64,000 nt of DNA from Escherichia phage VTCCBPA_211. The stretch is from the sequence record PP989838.1; one strand, given 5' to 3'. This document shows positions 10,139 through 25,869 of the stretch, piece by piece. Position 1 is the stretch's first letter. Each line of letters begins with the position of its first letter. Below the pieces are notes generated by a model. That model saw only the letters and a program-made list of their open reading frames with translations, made no database searches and was not told the DNA's origin. The position numbers and the translations under genes were made by a program.

Positions 10139-10320
10139 ATAAGTATAAAGTTCTGTTTAAAGATACTAACGACGCTGGTGATATGCGAGCTATGGACCTA
10201 GATGCTGACATGTTTAACTTCTCTGATGGCAAAGTGGCCTTCTTTCAGGGAAGTGAAGCTGTTGCAGTGTTTGAGAGTGCAGCAATCTGCGGTGTAATCA
10301 AAATCTTTATTACAGAGTAA
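10135..10320 (+). CDS. hypothetical protein (61 aa)
   Basis: ORF. Confidence 0.3.
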   Translation: MNKYKVLFKDTNDAGDMRAMDLDADMFNFSDGKVAFFQGSEAVAVFESAAICGVIKIFITE

Positions 10321-10389
10321 TCTGCTTTAGCCTCTTCGAAAGAGGAGGCTAGTTCGGATAAACTAAACAAACCAACAAAGGTATAGATA

Positions 10390-10809
10390 ATGTCAGAAGT
10401 AATTTACGTAGCAACTTATGGTTCTCTTCGTCGCGGTCAAGCTAACTATCTAGTTAATGACCGAGCTGGTGCTAAGTCAATTGGTGAAGGTTGGACTGAA
10501 GACAACTTTGATCTGTTCCGTTATGGTGGTTCCTACTTCCCAAGCATCTCTCTCGCACACAGCAATAACAATAAGCCTGTTCGTGTAGAAGTGTTTGCTA
10601 CTGACAAAGCAGGTCTGGAAGGCCCATATGACCGACTGGAAGGTTACAATAAGCATAGTCCTGAAGATAGTTTCTACAACAGATCTCTGATCAACGTCAA
10701 GATGGATTCAGGGGAGGTTGTTGAATGCTATATCTACCATATCGACGAAGAACAAGATGTTCTGGTTGAATCTGGCGACTGGTCAGAGTATCTGAAAAGT
10801 GAATCTTGA
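10390..10809 (+). CDS. gamma-glutamyl cyclotransferase-like (AIG2/GGCT family) protein
   Basis: N-terminal YVATYGSLRRG motif (YGSL) and size typical of the AIG2/GGCT fold. Confidence 0.5.
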   Translation: MSEVIYVATYGSLRRGQANYLVNDRAGAKSIGEGWTEDNFDLFRYGGSYFPSISLAHSNNNKPVRVEVFATDKAGLEGPYDRLEGYNKHSPEDSFYNRSLINVKMDSGEVVECYIYHIDEEQDVLVESGDWSEYLKSES

Positions 10810-11028: not shown

Positions 11029-12276
11029 ATGTCAAAGATCATTTTGGGAGACACAGGTTGTAAGGAATGTATCTCTCATGGTCGTGATAAAACCCACAAC
11101 CACATGATTCTCTTCCGTAACGAAGAGACTGGTGAGGAGTGGGGAAGTTGTAACCGTTGTGGGAATTACGAAGTGTTCGAAAAGGGCACTACACCTACTC
11201 CAAACGAGAAGAAAGAGTTATCCCCTGAAGAGTTGAGAGAAGTCTTAGATGATTGCTTAGAGCTTCCTCAGGGTGAACTTACTCGCCGTTTAATCCCTAA
11301 AGCTGTATCAGAGCGGTTTGAGTGTCGTATTGGCCTCAGTCAAACTGATGGTCAGACACCAGACAGTTACTTCTTTCCTCGTGAACGTGATGGAAACATT
11401 GTCGGATACGAGGTTAAGCTGCTAGATAGTAAGAAGTTCTATTACGTCGGCAGTGTGAAAGAAGCAGATTTGTTCGGTATGGCACAAGCTCAACGTGGAG
11501 ATGTGTACAACAAGAAGCTGTTCATTTTTGAAGACCCGCTATCCTGTATGTCAGGTTTCCATGTCCTTACAGCTTTTACAAATGCAACAAATATTAAACC
11601 AGCATGTGTTTCTTTACCGTTCGGTGCAGGTTCAATCTCTTCTGTGTTGTCTCGTAACCGAGACTTCGTAAATGGTTTTGAGGAGGTTGTGCTCTGCATG
11701 GACAACGATGATGCAGGTGAGATAGCTTTAACAAAAGGTCGTTCTTTATTCCCTCATGTTAAGTTTGCTCGTATTCCTAAAGGAACTTTCCCATACAACG
11801 GTGTGGAGAAAGAGATTAAGGATGCGAATGACATGCTTCTGTCTGGTCGTGGTCAAGAGTTATTCAACATTCTCAAGTACTCAGCAAAGCGGGAATCTCC
11901 TGCTGGAGCTGTAACAATCTTTGATTGTCTTGATGATGCTCTGAAGAAAGCGGAGTGGGGTATCCCATATCCGTGGAAGACTCTGAATGAGATGACCTTC
12001 GGTATTCGATGGGGAGAGGTGGTAGCAATTGGTGGTGGAGTAGGGAGTGGTAAAACACTCATTGCTCACGAGCTGGTTGCTCATCTGTGCTTAGAGCATG
12101 GTTTTAATGGAGGTGGCTTCTTCTTGGAAGAGAAGGTAGGCATGTCTGTTAAGAACATTGCTGGTAAGTCAGCATCAATTCCTTTCCACCGACCTGATGT
12201 TGAATATGATGAGGAGGATTTGCGTAATGAAGCACTTCGTTATGCAGACAAATTCTTCTTGTATGACAACTTCGGT
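11029..12276 (+). CDS. DNA primase-helicase (T7 gp4-like), exon 1
   Basis: N-terminal Zn finger CKEC...CNRC, TOPRIM-like VVLCMDNDDAG, Walker A GGGVGSGKT; ends at YDNFG, matching T7 gp4 HLYDSFA; strong AAGGAGGA SD. Confidence 0.8.
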
Positions 12277-12997
12277 TAACACAATGGCCGAAGTAAAACT
12301 AGGTGAATTCAGGGAAAGCTAAGTCGAAAGATATGCCAATCCTGAGCGAAGCCCTTCTCCTCCTATAGCACAAGGAGGTAATTCATGAAACGAATCACAG
12401 GATACGAAAACTACACCATTTCTGAAAACGGTGAGGTTTTTAATAACAGAGGTGCTCAATTAAAACCTTTTGTGAATAAAGGCAGAAATGAGTACTTGAG
12501 AGTGACACTAAGCTGTAGAGGGAAATCTAAACATTTTCTTGTTCACAGATTGGTTGCTCAAGAATACCTTAAAGATTTTAACCCGAATCTCCAAGTAGAC
12601 CACATGGATGGTGACAGTAGAAACAACCACCACTCAAACCTCCAAATGGTTACTTGCAAAGAAAATAACTCACTTGCTTCACAAAGAGAGTGGGAAAAGG
12701 GTGGTAATCAAAAACATTCTGATGATACAGTAAGGGAGGCCATAAGGCTTTCTCTAGATATGTCAACAGATAAGGTTGGGGAATTACTAGGTATCTCAGG
12801 GAGACAAGTCAGACGATACAGAAGTTTGACAAGTCGAAGATTTGTTGGAGAAGGGAACGTGCAGAGACTATCCGAAAGGAGTACACTGGAAGCTAATGAC
12901 AGTGGAAGCGCCTAGCCCCTTAACAGGGTGATGATATAGTCCAATCCCGTGGGAAACTGCGGGCAGTAGCCATGATGCTACGGGTAAAGGAGTTGCG
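12277..12997 (+). mobile_element. group I intron in the primase-helicase gene
   Basis: P1: exon end CTTCGGT pairs with internal guide GGCCGAAG including the U-G wobble at the splice site; P4-like TCAGGGAAAG / AATCCTGA; R-like CAGAGACTA and S-like GATGATATAGTCC; G at 12997 before the in-frame exon 2. Confidence 0.6.
12385..12915 (+). CDS. HNH homing endonuclease (intron-encoded)
   Basis: HNH-family motifs (FLVHRLVAQEYL ... DHMDGDSRNNHHSNLQ); sits inside the intron with an AAGGAGGT SD. Confidence 0.8.
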   Translation: MKRITGYENYTISENGEVFNNRGAQLKPFVNKGRNEYLRVTLSCRGKSKHFLVHRLVAQEYLKDFNPNLQVDHMDGDSRNNHHSNLQMVTCKENNSLASQREWEKGGNQKHSDDTVREAIRLSLDMSTDKVGELLGISGRQVRRYRSLTSRRFVGEGNVQRLSERSTLEANDSGSA

Positions 12998-13558
12998 TCC
13001 TTTATTGAATTATTGCAAAATGAATGGGAAGACATTAAACAGTGTATCCGTTTCTGGGTAGTTGAAAACCAGTGTAAGTTCATCATCCTTGATAACATTA
13101 CCGCTCTGGTGTCTCATTTAACACCTTCAGAGATTAACACTGAAATCAGTAAGATTGCTTCCGAGCTTGCTGGTATGTGTAAAGAGTTAGACTTTACCGC
13201 TTTCGTGCTATCTCACCTTAATGCTCCGGCAGGTGGTGCTCCTCATGAAGAAGGTGGACAGGTACGTGAAGTACAGTTCACTGGCTCTCGTTCTCTTATG
13301 CGTTGGTGTCAGTGTATCATTGGCTTTGAGCGTGACAAGCAAGCTGACGGCTTAGCTAAGAACCTCTCAGTCATTCGATTACTGAAAGAACGTAACTACG
13401 GTCAGACAGGTGTATGTTATACTAAGTATATCAGTGAAACCGGTAGACTTGTAGAAAGGGAAGACTTTGAAGTTGATGAAGATAATCCATTCGTTTTAAC
13501 TAACGGAGAGGATGCAGCTTCTCTCGTCAACCAAGCAGATGGAGCTTCACCGTGGTAA
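12998..13558 (+). CDS. DNA primase-helicase, exon 2 (helicase C-terminal part)
   Basis: [14 protein letters not shown] (Walker B-like, compare T7 DVIILDHISIV) and downstream helicase motifs; reading frame is open upstream of the track start; exon start inferred from the splice prediction. Confidence 0.7.
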
Positions 13559-14109
13559 AGAAAAAGAAGAAAGTGTTTGCATTCGATATCGAGAGTAATG
13601 CACTGTACGATGACATAACTAAAGTATGGTGTATTTATATCTTCGATGTTGAAACTGGTGAAAGGTGGGGCTATCGGCCTCACCAAATTGAAGATGGGAT
13701 TCGTAAACTTACAGAAGCAGATGTACTGGTGGGTCACAATATTATTGACTTCGACCTTTGTGCTCTGAAGAAGATGTATCCCAATCTGATTAACTATCGT
13801 TTTAACGTCTTCGACACTTTATGTCTTAGTCGATATCTTAAACCTGACCGTATTGGTGACAGTCCTGAGTATCCGAAAGGCGACCCTAGACGTGGCCCAA
13901 GAGGTCATGGTTTGAAGCAGTGGGGTGAGTTCTTAGGAGAGCTTAAGGGCGATTATGGTGAGCAAGAGGAAGCATGGGATGCTTTCACTGAAGATATGTT
14001 TACTTATTGTGAACAGGACGTTAACTTAACTGTTAAGGTTTATCTTTTCTTGTGTGAGCTCACGGGATTTGACCCTTACGACCCACCTTCATTATATTGG
14101 AAAATGTAA
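13552..14109 (+). CDS. DNA polymerase I family 3'-5' exonuclease domain protein (separately encoded)
   Basis: Exo I FDIESN, Exo [12 protein letters not shown], Exo III YCEQDV; collinear with the T7 DNA polymerase N-terminus; ends in a stop after the exo domain. Confidence 0.75.
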
Positions 14110-14110
14110 A

Positions 14111-15481
14111 ATGATTGTTATCCCGATTAACCAAATTGAAGATAAGGTTGCTCAACAACCTGATATCACTGTTGGTCGTCACTTCATTGAACAGTTGATT
14201 AACAACAATTTAGTTCCAGACGGTATCTGTCCCATCATTACTGGTGGGGCTGTTCGTGATGCTGTTCTTAACAATATAGCACCACATGACATTGATATCT
14301 TTATTGTCAGAGGGCAGCTTCCTGCTGGTAGAAACACTTTCACATCAACTGACCGTTGGCAAGCTCTTGGAAGAGAGATTGAAAGTAATGTGAAGGAATG
14401 GCTAGAGTCGCAAGATATTGAGTATTCATCACTTCTTGCTGAAGCTACAAACGAATCCTATGCGGGGGGTTCTCAATTAACATTCACTGATATTATTGAG
14501 TTTCAGTGGAATGGGGTTCGTATCCAATTCATGTTTAATTATCCTACTTCTATTGAAGAGATATTGGATAATTTTCCTATGATGTGCCGTGGTGCGATGA
14601 CTCTTGACAACCTATTCATGACTCCTCATGGATATTTGGCTATGACCGCTCCTTGCCCGGTGGTTGTTTCTAGTCGTGAAATCAGATACGTTCACAAAAA
14701 GTGGCCTAATTCACAAGTGTTAAGATTCTCAGCTCCATCTGTTGCATATCAATATATGGCCCAAACTCGATACCTTCCTACACCTCAGCCAGTTAGTCAT
14801 CTGGTTAGTGGATTAGGTCAGGTTTCTCTTATTGAGGATACAACAAGTGCTCAATATTGTGTTAACCGAGACATGAGTCTATTCTTTGGAATCCCTTATG
14901 AAGAGATTCTATTAATGTCAAGCGTTCACGGGTCTGGTCAGATTAGTGCGTATTGGTCTGAAGGGTTGACAAATTTAACGACTAACACGGGTGGTGATCT
15001 GCTTGGTCGAGAAGATGAACCTAACCGACACAATGCAATTGAAGGGGTTTTTGTAGCCCCTGCAATGCGTAGAGCACAAGAGTCACGAAGAGTAAGCCCT
15101 ACTCGTAGAGCATCTTTTGAAGAAGCTCTCGGTGTTACAAGTGATTCTATGGAGCGATGGATGGCTAGACCCTCTCGTGGTCGACCAAATGGTTTAACTG
15201 TTAGCGCACGTCAGTTCTCTGGTCAGGGTTTTGCTGTCGGTGATATCAACGCACCTGTTAGGGCTGTGTGGACTGATGAAGGTGTGGCCCAAGATGTGGT
15301 AGGCAGTCTCTCCGATCTTGATACTCCTTCTCATGAGGAACTCGCTGAGGCTGTCAGCCGCAATCTCGCTGATCGCTTTATTACTAACAACCCTGAAGTA
15401 TTAGAACCTCAAACCCGTACAGTTCGGTTTGCTGATGAAGCGGGTCGTGGAATCTCTTTTGACGTAGAAACAAATAACTAA
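14111..15481 (+). CDS. nucleotidyltransferase (CCA-adding enzyme / poly(A) polymerase head-domain-like)
   Basis: GGAVRDAVL...PHDIDIFIV matches the GGxVRD...DxD signature of class-II tRNA nucleotidyltransferases; ATG at 14111. Confidence 0.45.
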   Translation: MIVIPINQIEDKVAQQPDITVGRHFIEQLINNNLVPDGICPIITGGAVRDAVLNNIAPHDIDIFIVRGQLPAGRNTFTSTDRWQALGREIESNVKEWLESQDIEYSSLLAEATNESYAGGSQLTFTDIIEFQWNGVRIQFMFNYPTSIEEILDNFPMMCRGAMTLDNLFMTPHGYLAMTAPCPVVVSSREIRYVHKKWPNSQVLRFSAPSVAYQYMAQTRYLPTPQPVSHLVSGLGQVSLIEDTTSAQYCVNRDMSLFFGIPYEEILLMSSVHGSGQISAYWSEGLTNLTTNTGGDLLGREDEPNRHNAIEGVFVAPAMRRAQESRRVSPTRRASFEEALGVTSDSMERWMARPSRGRPNGLTVSARQFSGQGFAVGDINAPVRAVWTDEGVAQDVVGSLSDLDTPSHEELAEAVSRNLADRFITNNPEVLEPQTRTVRFADEAGRGISFDVETNN

Positions 15482-15490
15482 GGAATAAGA

Positions 15491-16024
15491 ATGAGTTTAC
15501 TAGGAAGTATTGAACTGCACGATGTAATTGACAATGGCTATCTGAATGCGGAGCATAAATATGTTAACGCTGCTAGTGTGGATATCCGTATTGGTGATAC
15601 TATCCTTGTTGAAGAACAGGCTGATGGCATCGTTGATATTGATGCGAAAGAGAATCTTCAGTGGAAGGAAGTAAAGATTCCTGAAGAGGGTTTGGTTATC
15701 ACTCCGGGTCAGTTCTTCTTGGCTCACTCCATGGAGGAGTTTAATCTTCCAGATAACATCTCAAGTCTGTTTGTCCTACGTTCATCTATGGCTCGTTGTG
15801 GTTTGAACCACCTCCACGCCGGGTGGGCAGACGCAGGGTTTAACAGCAGTAAGCTGACATTTGAGTTCCATAACGTAACCAAGCATCATAGCTTACGAGT
15901 TCGTGCTGGTATGCGTGTTGGTCAGATGGTGATGTTTGAGCACTCTCATGCAGGGGAACATTCCTATGCAGTGAAGGGTCGTTATAATAACTCTGAAGGT
16001 GTAGTTGCATCTAAAGGTGTGTAA
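15491..16024 (+). CDS. dcd: dCTP deaminase family protein
   Basis: SVDIRIG, LRSSMARCGL, GWADAGFNSSKLTFEFHN, GMRVGQMVMFE and C-terminal VVASKGV align with E. coli Dcd. Confidence 0.65.
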   Translation: MSLLGSIELHDVIDNGYLNAEHKYVNAASVDIRIGDTILVEEQADGIVDIDAKENLQWKEVKIPEEGLVITPGQFFLAHSMEEFNLPDNISSLFVLRSSMARCGLNHLHAGWADAGFNSSKLTFEFHNVTKHHSLRVRAGMRVGQMVMFEHSHAGEHSYAVKGRYNNSEGVVASKGV

Positions 16025-16915: not shown

Positions 16916-17245
16916 ATGTTAGATTTGAGTAAAGTGGCCCCGCCCACTGAAGAGATTACAAAATCCAAGGTGATGCAACAGTTTTATCATCGTGATATGC
17001 TTGGTCGCTTTATCAAGAATCGTGATGTTGTTGCTTGGTCTATTGGTAATCAGGGGTATCTGTTGAAGGTTCTTCAGGTTACAGGTTCAACTGCTAAGCG
17101 AGTTAAGGTGTATGACCCTGAAATGGGGCGTTCTAAGTCAGTAGACCCACAGAACTGCATCGTAATTACCCAGCAGGTAATGGATAATATTGCACGTAAC
17201 GTTGCTAACTCAGTTGAACTTGATGGAGAAAACCCAAATGCATAA
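16916..17245 (+). CDS. hypothetical protein (109 aa)
   Basis: ORF downstream of a promoter-like AAATGTATA motif. Confidence 0.4.
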   Translation: MLDLSKVAPPTEEITKSKVMQQFYHRDMLGRFIKNRDVVAWSIGNQGYLLKVLQVTGSTAKRVKVYDPEMGRSKSVDPQNCIVITQQVMDNIARNVANSVELDGENPNA

Positions 17246-17801
17246 GAATGTCTTTGATTTACCTGAGATTGGTCGTGACAGTTATAGCATGTTAGACCGG
17301 TCCGACCTATCAATCTCTCGCCTTGAAACGATGCAAGGTATGATTAGTGGAAACAGCCTAGAACACATCCTGAGCTGCTTACAAGCTAACATGGAACTCT
17401 TGCATATCAAAGCTAAAAACTACCACTGGAACGTCTCTGGTGCAGGATTTCAGGGTGTTCATGGTATGTTTGACGAGCTGGAAGATTACGCACGACAGGT
17501 AGGAGATCGTATTGCTGAACGTATGCGTTACCACTGTGTTAAAGTGGATGCTACAGCAGCTAACTACCTCTCTCATGCTTGGTTCTCAGAGGGTAATGCT
17601 GATCTAGACATGGACGGTATGCTCTCTGATATGTGCATGACCTTGATGTGTATTATTGAGAAGATGGATGAGTTTGATGGCGATTTAGCCACCTACCCTG
17701 TCGATCAGAGTATGCTTCAAGAAATTAATGAAGGTCTTGGCAAGTATTGCTACTTCGTCAAGAGCAACATGTCCCACTCAAGTGGTGATGTGTCTTACTA
17801 A
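17238..17801 (+). CDS. Dps-like ferritin-fold protein
   Basis: LHIKAKNYHWNVSGAGFQGVHGMFDELEDYARQVGDRIAERM matches the Dps signature; ATG at 17238 with GGAGA SD. Confidence 0.6.
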   Translation: MHKNVFDLPEIGRDSYSMLDRSDLSISRLETMQGMISGNSLEHILSCLQANMELLHIKAKNYHWNVSGAGFQGVHGMFDELEDYARQVGDRIAERMRYHCVKVDATAANYLSHAWFSEGNADLDMDGMLSDMCMTLMCIIEKMDEFDGDLATYPVDQSMLQEINEGLGKYCYFVKSNMSHSSGDVSY

Positions 17802-19746: not shown

Positions 19747-19946
19747 AAACTTTGTGGACTCTTGACTGCCAAGACGAGGACGGAGAGCGTTGGACTTGGA
19801 AATATTTCCTAGGGAAACCGACACCTGATAATCCTGCTTTGGATTGTGCTTCATATGAAGACGCCAAGAAATTGGTAAACGGAGAGAAAGTTCGGTCTCC
19901 GGATAATGAAGTTATGTACTTTTTAACAGAACGGAAATTTTCATAA
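19743..19946 (+). CDS. hypothetical protein (67 aa)
   Basis: ORF. Confidence 0.35.
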   Translation: MKTLWTLDCQDEDGERWTWKYFLGKPTPDNPALDCASYEDAKKLVNGEKVRSPDNEVMYFLTERKFS

Positions 19947-20269
19947 TGATCGATGGTAATACATTTAGGACTTCAAATGGAAGTGAAATAAGTCCCGCTG
20001 AAGTAATCAATCGGCATAGAAGGCAATTGATCATCCATTCCTATTTGTATTACTGGTTGGATGACCCTATCTGGTCTGATGATAAATGGCAACAAGTTGC
20101 TAATGATCTAGTGGAGCTACAAGCCCTGTATCCAGAACCTACCGGAGTCTTTGACAACGAGTTTAAAGATTGGGATGGTTCTACAGGTATGCATCTCCCA
20201 CATAACGAAGCTGTTGCTTGTATGGCGACAGCTGTTTACAGACTTCATAAAGAGGTTAACGTCGCATGA
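19946..20269 (+). CDS. hypothetical protein (107 aa)
   Basis: ORF. Confidence 0.4.
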   Translation: MIDGNTFRTSNGSEISPAEVINRHRRQLIIHSYLYYWLDDPIWSDDKWQQVANDLVELQALYPEPTGVFDNEFKDWDGSTGMHLPHNEAVACMATAVYRLHKEVNVA

Positions 20270-23336: not shown

Positions 23337-24682
23337 GTGAGCAACCCGGACGCTCTTCCATTTTTGACAGAGATGACTGTCGCTGATATAATCTCTAAGC
23401 AAGCAAAGCACGGAGTGAGTTTCAACCGAAGAAATGCTCGGTGGTATGTTCACCTCCTTAAAGAGATTATTGTTAATATTGACAGAGAGTTGATTCCTCT
23501 CTTACCTAAGATGAGATTAGACGGCTCTACTTATATGAAGCCGTTTAAGAAGTCTGGAGCTTTACAGAAGTGGCCTCAAGCTTATTGTGATAGGGTTGGG
23601 CTGAAGAGAGAAGATATTGGTGGAGCTTTCACCTGTGTCGAATATGTAGACTTTGACCCATCGAAAGATGCACGAGTTAAAGAAGCTCTTATGGATGAGG
23701 GCTTTCTTCCTCCAGAGTTTAATGTATCTAAGAAGCCTTGGAATACTTTCGAAATTAAGAAAGATATGAGAAAGTATGGAACATACCAAGCATGGTATAC
23801 TGCTTGGATGCGAGGCAATGCTAAGCAGAAGCAGACAGCCGAGATGGTTGACGCTGATATTAAGAAGTTCTTAGAAAAGCATTTCAGGTTTAAAACTAAG
23901 AACTATATGAAGGCTTACGTATTTGGTTTGGGATTAAACCCTAATCGTCGTAATCCTGTAACGTTTGATGAGATTAAGAAAGCGCTAGCCACATCAAACA
24001 AGTGGCCTACAGCTCCTACAAACCTCGAGGAGACTCTTGAAGAAGGGTTAGGGGGTGAGCTAGGGAGTGTCGGAAGTTTGCTTAAGAGACGCGTTGTAGC
24101 GGCTCACAGGCTAGGTCTTATCAGTGGACTTATAGCAAAGGAACGCGAAGATGGTAAACTTTCGGCAGAAGCTAACAGCTGCGCTACGCCGACTTTTCGA
24201 TTCAAACATCGTATCGTGGTTAATATTCCCTCCCGTGGTCTGTTTGGTCACGAGTGTCGCAGTTTGTTTGAGTCTGACTATAACTCAGACAGTGATCACT
24301 CTCGTCCTTTCGTTATTACTAACGCTGTTCCTGATGGTTGTTATATACGAAAAGGTACTAACGTAATTTACGAGAAAGGTAAGCCGGGGAAGAAAGACAA
24401 ACCTGTAGGCGCTTACAAATATTACATACCCGCTGGTAAAGAAGTATTCTTAGGGTATGATGGTTCTGGACTTGAACTTCGTATGTTAGTGCATTATCTT
24501 GTGAAAGAGTGCCTTGACATGATGGAAGAAGCCAAAGCAGAGAACGATAAAATTAAGTATCTAAGGGCTGAGAAAGGTTTAGAGGCTGCTTATACTTATC
24601 GAGAGGTTCTTCTCTCAGGTGATATCCATTCCCACAACCAGAAACTAGCTGGCCTACCAACTAGAGATAATGCAAAGACGTT
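23337..24682 (+). CDS. DNA polymerase I family polymerase domain, exon 1
   Basis: Motif A LGYDGSGLELRML and start of motif B RDNAKTF, collinear with T7 DNA polymerase; GTG start with AAAGGAG SD. Confidence 0.75.
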
Positions 24683-25370
24683 TAACACAATGGGCGTCTA
24701 TAAATTCCTTTAATTCGGTGGACATCTAGAACAGATAATACCGAGCCAAGCCATCCAATCTGCCTTGAAGACAAGGAGGTGGATTATGATTTGCAGGATT
24801 TGTAAAGAAGATAAAAGCGAAGACAATTTCCACAGAAACAGAACAAACGTGACTGGACTAGACTACAGGTGTAAAGCTTGTAGGAGAGAAGAAGCACGAA
24901 TTGGAAGAGAGAGCAATTACTTCCAACACTACTGTAGAGGAAAGAAATCTGAATGTAAGATAAAGGGTTATGATTTTGACTTAACTCCAGAGTTCTTAGA
25001 AGAGATTTGGACAGGATATTGTCCAATATTTGGTGTAGAAATCTCAAGAGCTTCGGAAGGAAGAGGATCTCACAACTCAGCACATTTGGACAGAATAGAT
25101 TCAAGTAAGGGTTACCTAATAGGTAACGTATCTTGGATTAGCGGCAGAGCAAACCGTATAAAATATGATGCTACTGCTAAAGAGCTTAGATCTATTGCAG
25201 ATTGGATGGAAGGTGTAACGACTAGTCGTGATGAGTTTAGCGACGTAGGGCCAAGCGGCTCGAAACAAGGAACCTCTTAAAAGAGGAAGAGATAGTCTGC
25301 TCTGCATGGGGACATGCAGCAGTTCATAAGAGAACGGGGGGAGTGGTAGCGTACTCCCTTGAACATCAGG
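24683..25370 (+). mobile_element. group I intron in the DNA polymerase gene
   Basis: Begins with the same 11-mer TAACACAATGG as the helicase intron; guide GGGCGTCT pairs with exon end AGACGTT; R-like AACGACTAG and S-like AAGAGATAGTCT; G at 25370; splicing restores KTF-IYGFLYGAG. Confidence 0.6.
24786..25280 (+). CDS. HNH homing endonuclease (intron-encoded)
   Basis: HNH motifs (HLDRIDSSKGY ... NVSWISGRANRIK), Cys pairs; ATG at 24786 with AAGGAGGTGG SD. Confidence 0.75.
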   Translation: MICRICKEDKSEDNFHRNRTNVTGLDYRCKACRREEARIGRESNYFQHYCRGKKSECKIKGYDFDLTPEFLEEIWTGYCPIFGVEISRASEGRGSHNSAHLDRIDSSKGYLIGNVSWISGRANRIKYDATAKELRSIADWMEGVTTSRDEFSDVGPSGSKQGTS

Positions 25371-25869
25371 TATCTATGGATTTCTATATGGGGCAGGCGC
25401 AGCTAAGATTGGAGAGATTGTTGGAGGAGGCGCTCAAGAGGGTGAAATTCTCAGAGAACGTTTCTTAGCAGAATGCCCTTGTATCCCAATTGTCTTGGAG
25501 AGAGTACAAGCTCGTGCAGAAACAGGCACTCTTGAAGGTGTGGATGGTCGTAAGTTGACCATGAGACGGGATGCCACTGGTAAAGTTATGGTTCATAAAG
25601 CACTAAACACTTTACTTCAGAGTGCGGGTGCTATTGTCATGAAATATTCTATTCTCTTCACAAACAAGTGGGTAGATCAGCAGAACATTAGGGGTAACAA
25701 AGTAATTGACTACCATGATGAAGCTCAGTGGTCTGTTAACCGTAACGATGTTGATAAGATGAAAAAGATAGCTGAGACTTGTGTCAAGAAGGCGGGTGAG
25801 TACCTAAACATGCACTGTGAGCTAGCTTCTGATTGTAAAATCGGACTGAATTGGATGCAAACTCACTAA
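25371..25869 (+). CDS. DNA polymerase I family polymerase domain, exon 2
   Basis: In-frame YGFLYGAGAAKIGEIVGGG (rest of motif B) and motif C VIDYHDEAQW; the reading frame is open upstream of the track ORF. Confidence 0.7.

Follow-up and report, generated by a model that had tools for sequence, protein, structure and literature searches.

The window analysed here, namely the whole stretch of 64,000 nucleotides from Escherichia phage VTCCBPA_211 (sequence record PP989838.1), is a Kuravirus genome, that is, one of a phiEco32/SU10-like podophage within the Gordonclarkvirinae. The gene under study encodes a nucleotidyltransferase, and the 2.6 kb around it are 95.5% identical to Escherichia phage PGN6866 and 94.5% identical to SU10. 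The ORF lies on the plus strand, runs from the ATG at 14111 to the TAA at 15479–15481 and specifies 456 amino acid residues. A preliminary description made from the sequence alone had reported an ORF at 14111–15481 with a GGAVRD...DIDIF motif, and both are borne out, the motif corresponding to residues 45–66 of the product. The GTG at 14054, the start of a longer version that overlaps the upstream gene, is not supported, since all relatives begin with MI(V/K/T)IP. The gene, its parts and its direct neighbours are as follows.

13552–14109, plus strand: 3'-5' exonuclease subunit of the T7-type DNA polymerase, encoded as a separate gene; its stop lies 1 nt before the transferase ATG
14111–15481, plus strand: nucleotidyltransferase gene, 456 aa plus stop; ortholog of SU10 gp074 and phiEco32 gp73; PHROG 12715
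14111–14725, plus strand: conserved catalytic core (aa 1–205), class II-like head and start of the neck, according to the alignment and the AlphaFold2 model
14243–14308, plus strand: motif A (aa 45–66), GGAVRDAVLNNIAPHDIDIFIV, with G45, G46, R49, D50, D60, D62 and F64 invariant in 24 sequences
14483–14548, plus strand: beta-hairpin (aa 125–146) with the candidate third metal ligands D127 (always D/E) and Q139 (invariant), an inferred assignment
14573–14593, plus strand: position of motif B (RRDFTINA), which reads F155-P156-M-M-C-R-G; no RRD, P156 invariant
14675–14707, plus strand: family motif REIRYVHKKWP (aa 189–199), at the position of class II motif D (EDxxR)
14726–14965, plus strand: helical region (aa 206–285), confidently folded in the AlphaFold2 model and poorly conserved outside the Gordonclarkvirinae
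14966–15220, plus strand: first half of the tail (aa 286–370), disordered, Arg-rich, pI 11.3
15221–15478, plus strand: second half of the tail (aa 371–456), acidic, pI 4.2, with a weakly predicted helix and beta-hairpin at aa 408–454
15491–16024, plus strand: dCTP deaminase, 9 nt downstream of the transferase gene and its invariant downstream neighbour across the family

The gene is already known: it belongs to the core genes of a well-sampled phage subfamily, and its orthologs, which share 78–96% identity with the window protein, are annotated as "nucleotidyltransferase" and listed in PHROGs and RefSeq. The match to the PHROG 12715 "nucleotidyltransferase" profile has an E-value of 4e-260 and covers residues 1–456 of the window protein and positions 1–457 of the profile. 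Most orthologs also carry the precomputed Pfam label PF26128.2, but a local Pfam-A search gives no such match even at E≤10. Searches of the window protein against NCBIfam and PADLOC returned no matches, and no functional study of this transferase family or of PHROG 1614, the related family discussed below, was found in the literature. The ortholog in SU10 has been detected by mass spectrometry and is listed there among the early gene products (PMC4281155), while the literature on relatives assigns the block of replication and nucleotide-metabolism genes to the middle class.

Fold and family assignment

With the window protein alone, the sole Pfam match is PF01743 (the PolyA_pol head), which at 15.7 bits falls below the 23-bit cut-off and stops at profile position 37–85 of 126, and a phmmer search of the PDB yields noise only. 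PF01743 is also the top Pfam match in 19 of 24 diverse family members, and when the family profile is compared with the PDB a CCA-adding enzyme ranks first (6ibp, E = 1.4e-3). Using hhalign, the family matched a five-sequence class II profile with 89% probability (E = 2e-6) in an alignment that is reliable only around motif A, and the family profile matched the single sequences of E. coli Cca and PAP I weakly (16% and 6% probability, respectively). The sequence similarity to class II enzymes is confined to about 35–70 residues around motif A. The AlphaFold2 model, built from a 31-sequence alignment, is confident for residues 1 to about 280–285 (pLDDT mostly 73–95), with lower values in the loops 71–80 and 112–121, about 61 over residues 271–280 and values below 50 for residues 285–406 and 432–456. 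In a Foldseek search of the PDB the top 36 matches (E-values from 6.5e-6 to 5e-4) are all class II CCA-, CC- or A-adding enzymes, whose head/neck fold is present in the window protein. The stand-alone CCA-head protein NP_344798.1 of Streptococcus pneumoniae (PDB 2la3) differs in being bacterial, 191 residues long and without a tail, and matches the window protein much more weakly than full-length class II enzymes do.

The preliminary description had recognised the head signature of class II tRNA nucleotidyltransferases and poly(A) polymerases in the N-terminal motif, and PF01743, the family profile, hhalign and the match of the AlphaFold2 model all agree with this. Its statement that about 350 residues are unassigned stands only in part, as the model adds about 220 further folded residues (to about residue 285) and predicts about 170 residues to be disordered. 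In both profile and structure comparison the class II enzymes are the best match, and the protein is not placed in another Pol-beta family such as the antibiotic transferases. The aminoglycoside and lincosamide transferases (ANT/Lnu/Lin) are not its best structural or profile match, and neither a defence-profile match (PADLOC) nor the best fold match points to CD-NTases or other defence-system nucleotidyltransferases. These comparisons bear on a quite different reading, in which the enzyme would nucleotidylate a protein or small molecule, or make a signalling or alarmone-type nucleotide, for takeover or counter-defence, with the tail as its targeting element. We consider it unlikely, given that the class II enzymes are clearly the best match in structure and sequence and that PADLOC and NCBIfam give no match; the charge of the protein does not discriminate here, because the head plus neck of E. 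coli Cca is equally acidic.

Conserved core and active site

When 1.84 billion representative proteins were searched exhaustively with phmmer, no more than 31 matched, all of the same family; in cultured phages this family is present in 97 records, each from Escherichia/Shigella Gordonclarkvirinae. Residues 1 to about 205–210 are the only part common to the whole family, whose distant members have 274–340 residues and whose Gordonclarkvirinae members carry variable tails of 170–270 residues. The dN/dS ratio is about 0.10 for the core (aa 1–205), 0.2–0.4 for aa 206–285 and 0.2–0.45 for the tail (aa 286–456). The invariant residues in the alignment of 24 diverse members are M1, G45, G46, R49, D50, D60, D62, F64, I128, Q139, P156, Y193 and K197, while position 127 holds D or E throughout. 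Motif A, consisting of GGxVRD and then DxD on the next strand (aa 45–62, GGAVRDAVLNNIAPHDID), is found in 80 of 80 family members, and the pattern R-[DE]-x-x-Y-x-x-[KR..]-K within the motif at aa 189–199 in 71 of them. The positions taken as equivalent to motifs B and D were assigned from the order of secondary structures, the topology and manual comparison.

As far as the sequence can tell, the G-G...R-D / D-x-D metal and triphosphate site is intact and under strong purifying selection, and the protein is best read as a truncated nucleotidyltransferase of class II derivation that appears to be active. It seems very improbable that it lacks catalysis and serves the replisome as a mere scaffold. 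A scaffold would be suited by the invariant Q139, which may occupy the presumed position of the third carboxylate, and by the long disordered tail, a typical trait of hub proteins; however, GG, R49, D50, D60 and D62 are invariant across members with 25–40% identity to the window protein, and together with the dN/dS of 0.10 this is the pattern predicted by catalysis, not by scaffolding.

Loss of the determinants for CCA addition

In class II enzymes, the RRD of motif B recognises the ribose 2'-OH and confers NTP specificity, the EDxxR of motif D is the amino-acid template that selects CTP or ATP, and the helical body and tail domains (e.g. PF12627) bind and measure the tRNA. None of the 80 family members has RRD at the position of motif B or EDxxR at that of motif D, while the controls, E. 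coli Cca (RRD at 90) and PAP I (RRD at 160), were positive for both. Moreover, Pfam detects no PolyA_pol_RNAbd (PF12627), body/tail, HD or Arg-rich C-terminal domain in the window protein even at E≤10. E. coli Cca is composed of PolyA_pol, PolyA_pol_RNAbd and HD, and E. coli PAP I of PolyA_pol, PolyA_pol_RNAbd and an Arg-rich C-terminus (PF12626); from the latter architecture the window protein shows only the sub-threshold head match. Class II CCA enzymes and PAP I (PF01743; PDB 3aql, 1miv, 4wby, 3h37 and 1ou5) have about 400 folded residues and contain both RRD and EDxxR, whereas the window protein has about 285 folded residues, lacks both motifs and carries a disordered tail of 170 residues. 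A body/tail domain is likewise absent from the MenT/AbiEii toxins, which are small enzymes with a Pol-beta fold and extend tRNA 3' ends by nucleotides.

ARAGORN and Rfam confirm that there are no tRNA genes in the window, as first noted from the sequence, and the only tRNA of SU10, tRNA-Arg(TCT), encodes its own CCA. These results speak to the function first proposed for the gene, the addition of CCA and repair of tRNA 3' ends damaged by host defence nucleases. The proposal has in its favour that the nearest structural relatives are CCA-adding enzymes, that motif A is a perfect class II signature and that small phage proteins related to it frequently carry the annotation tRNA nucleotidyltransferase (PMC7693777). 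Nevertheless, it is not supported, with RRD and EDxxR missing in 80 of 80 members and no RNA-binding body or tail on a folded part of only about 285 residues; it is also opposed by the disordered and lineage-specific tail, by the lack of tRNA genes in the window and the self-encoded CCA of the SU10 tRNA, by the placement in a replication operon and by the fact that the host already has Cca. It is unlikely that the window protein is a true CCA-adding enzyme, and we doubt just as much that it restores damaged tRNA ends. Several GenBank records carry the label "CCA-adding enzyme"; with the specificity motifs and tRNA-binding domains gone, this label should not be taken to mean that CCA is added to tRNA.

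The disordered C-terminal tail

The second half of the tail (aa 371–456) is found only in Kuravirus, with alternative C-termini in subclades, and the search of 1.84 billion proteins gave no homologs of the tail outside close relatives, which makes it lineage-specific. The tail is translated, because the coding-type pattern of GC1 far above GC3 (0.64 vs 0.29) is kept. The Arg-rich C-terminus of PAP I resembles the Arg-rich segment of the tail in character only and is not homologous to it. In every pairwise comparison dS of the tail-coding part (14966–15478) is 2–5 times lower than that of the core (0.10–0.32 vs 0.29–0.78). The region shows mosaic blocks with 84–100% identity to SU10, which are typical of recombination, and recombination is the likely cause of the low dS. 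An overlapping element at the nucleotide level may also play a part but is less favoured in view of this mosaic, since there is no overlapping ORF of at least 40 aa on the plus strand (one of 46 aa lies on the minus strand, at 15194–15334) and no Rfam match in the tail-coding region. In the metagenomic relatives P0047, P0049, P0053, P0057, P0059, P0060 and P0063, the tails are otherwise unalignable and end in aromatic-x-aromatic (…RSEW, …EYDF, …REVW, …RWQW, …GWTF, …TWDW and …RFNF), which may be a short docking motif. The C-terminus of the window protein, …GISFDVETNN, is unlike these ends.

Genetic organization around the transferase gene

The gap of 1 nt between the exonuclease and transferase genes suggests translational coupling. 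The order primase/helicase, exonuclease subunit, transferase and dCTP deaminase is the same in Kuravirus, Nieuwekanaalvirus, Suseptimavirus and the window, and also in two metagenomic relatives whose transferases are only about 25–28% identical to the window protein. The DNA polymerase domain is encoded about 9 kb downstream of the transferase, with ThyX, thioredoxin (annotated in SU10), PhoH and an Nlig-Ia domain in between. An obligate pairing of transferase and exonuclease was rejected, as Vibrio phage Vp_R1 has a 50%-identical exonuclease subunit and no adjacent transferase.

Several further features of the window were observed. The primase/helicase gene is split by an insertion of 739 nt (12277–13015) located exactly between codons 416 and 417 of the intact SU10 ortholog, and its exons (11029–12276 and 13016–13555) are 99.8–100% identical to SU10. 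The insertion contains an HNH_3/NUMOD4 homing-endonuclease ORF (12385–12915, plus strand) and two sub-threshold group I intron matches (RF00028, 12267–12552, E = 3e-6, and 12741–12963, E = 6e-5), and is probably a mobile group I intron. The gene for the T7-type DNA polymerase is also split, residues 1–453 of the SU10 protein corresponding to 23337–24707 and residues 450–614 to 25372–25866. The break falls just after the segment matching residues 490–519 of T7 polymerase, and the 3' exon is only 69% identical to SU10. The interruption (24708–25371) holds an Endo VII/HNH-like endonuclease ORF (24765–25280, plus strand, PHROG 3322) and a weak group I intron match (25105–25319, E = 0.02). The ORF at 19946–20269 (plus strand), labelled "DNA ligase" in relatives, encodes a stand-alone Nlig-Ia domain of 107 residues (PF22745, E = 2.7e-35) and not a complete ligase; Nlig-Ia is the NAD+-binding domain Ia of NAD-dependent ligases. 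A ferritin-like (Dps-type) domain protein, labelled "DNA binding protein" in relatives, is encoded at 17190–17801 (plus strand) within the replication block and also occurs in the distant relative L005. In addition, the ORFs at about 1433–10500 (plus strand) are collinear with the SU10 block for COOH-NH2 ligase, amidoligase and glutamine amidotransferase, including a RimK-like ATP-grasp enzyme and gamma-glutamyl cyclotransferase, and form a predicted peptide- or metabolite-modifying cluster, which is kept in distant relatives (GATase_6 and GGACT in L005 and L006).

The sister family PHROG 1614 and a possible role in DNA metabolism

When viral models were searched with Foldseek, the best matches after the own ortholog were proteins of 137–255 residues named "poly A polymerase head domain" or "nucleotidyltransferase", from Providencia PS3, Aeromonas phiAS7, Pseudomonas LKD16, Pectobacterium PP2, Dickeya Ninurta, Vibrio ICP1 and others. 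ORF16 of LKD16 matches PHROG 1614 with E = 1e-39, and the window protein matches it with E = 1e-6 over aa 34–155 only. LKD16 ORF16 sits between the helicase and DNA ligase genes, and its homologs in at least 225 phage records adjoin ligase or polymerase genes. In T7-like phages of Pectobacterium, the small transferase gene lies between those for primase/helicase and DNA polymerase (PMC7693777). PHROG 1614, which comprises phiKMV gp16/LKD16 ORF16 and the proteins of gh-1 and PP2/PP47 (Autographiviridae), resembles the window family in being head-only, with GGAxRD...DIDxxF and no RRD, in its profile match (E about 1e-6 to 1e-7) and structure (TM about 0.4–0.6), and in its location inside a T7-type replication operon by helicase, ligase or polymerase genes. 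However, its proteins have only 137–255 residues, no long disordered tail and a different C-terminal half, they belong to a different PHROG, and their genes are not beside an exonuclease subunit or dCTP deaminase, unlike the window gene. The two are related sister families and not one family. Head-only class II transferases recur in T7-type replication operons as a larger group, of which the window gene forms one branch.

Such a genetic context raises the question of whether the substrate could be DNA. The transferase would then be an enzyme of the replication module that processes ends or acts like a terminal transferase, and so aids the repair or tolerance of nuclease damage, or that takes part in a covalent DNA modification; in this way it would add to the marked restriction resistance of these phages. 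The gene order described above is invariant down to members with about 25% identity to the window protein, with the exonuclease gene ending 1 nt before the transferase, in phiKMV- and T7-like phages the PHROG 1614 genes adjoin those for helicase, ligase or DNA polymerase, and the ribose 2'-OH sensor is lost in the window family. The authors of the BASEL study reported the Gordonclarkvirinae as remarkably RM-resistant and pointed to the transferase gene together with dCTP deaminase as a possible route of modification (PMC11990801). Moreover, a 2026 preprint linked the phiKMV operon gp14–17 to ligase-dependent break repair; by gene position this operon contains the small transferase, but the transferase is not mentioned there, so that the preprint does not implicate it. 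Against a role in DNA metabolism, synteny across one viral lineage may reflect vertical inheritance only, and Vp_R1 has the homologous exonuclease subunit with no transferase beside it. Furthermore, the presence of ThyX and dCTP deaminase is explained by ordinary dTTP supply, the DNA modification is putative only, and the Kuravirus "ligase" consists of just the 107-residue Nlig-Ia domain. Family X DNA polymerases and terminal transferase share the Pol-beta catalytic palm, but the likeness in action on DNA ends comes from the genomic context only, and Pol X enzymes are poorer structural matches. On balance, we hold a DNA-directed role to be the main, though rather doubtful, alternative.

Probable function

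The explanation that we favour, with a probability of about 45%, is that the product is a template-free tailing or end-modifying transferase acting on a nucleic-acid 3' end, its substrate being chosen via the tail or a partner. All class II enzymes characterised so far, to our knowledge, add NMPs to a nucleic-acid 3'-OH in the absence of a template, and by analogy the window enzyme would do the same, most probably on RNA. With the amino-acid template and the tRNA ruler lost, it could not count out C-C-A, because it is the EDxxR template and this ruler that would specify the sequence, and it would act instead as a short-tailing or end-modifying enzyme. The choice of substrate would come from the Arg-rich/acidic disordered tail or from a partner protein and not from a built-in RNA-binding domain. 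Several points weigh against this explanation. The loss of RRD removes the NTP specificity of class II enzymes, which would leave room for a dNTP as donor and for DNA as acceptor; the invariant Q139 may hold the position of the class II third carboxylate, which is unusual for an active polymerase-type site; the window protein has no recognisable nucleic-acid-binding domain; and a role on DNA would account for the strict linkage to replication genes no less well than a role on RNA. That the core is acidic was rejected as an argument against nucleic-acid binding, in view of the equally acidic head/neck of E. coli Cca. Tailing of RNA is a possible, putative activity of the window enzyme.

The value of the present results is negative and organisational, and as a sequence feature the transferase gene is ordinary. 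A bolder idea, which we offer as speculative and rather improbable, is that the head-only class II transferases of the window family and PHROG 1614 are conserved accessories of the T7-type podophage replisome that act on DNA or primer ends, not on tRNA, and underlie the unusual tolerance of Gordonclarkvirinae and Phikmvvirus to restriction and CRISPR. Such accessories might trim or fill broken ends for phage-encoded break repair, or install a change in DNA at the level of the nucleotide. If an action on DNA ends or a contribution to nuclease resistance proves true, this would reveal a new use for the CCA/PAP catalytic module, and it would be relevant to therapeutic Kuravirus and phiKMV phages.
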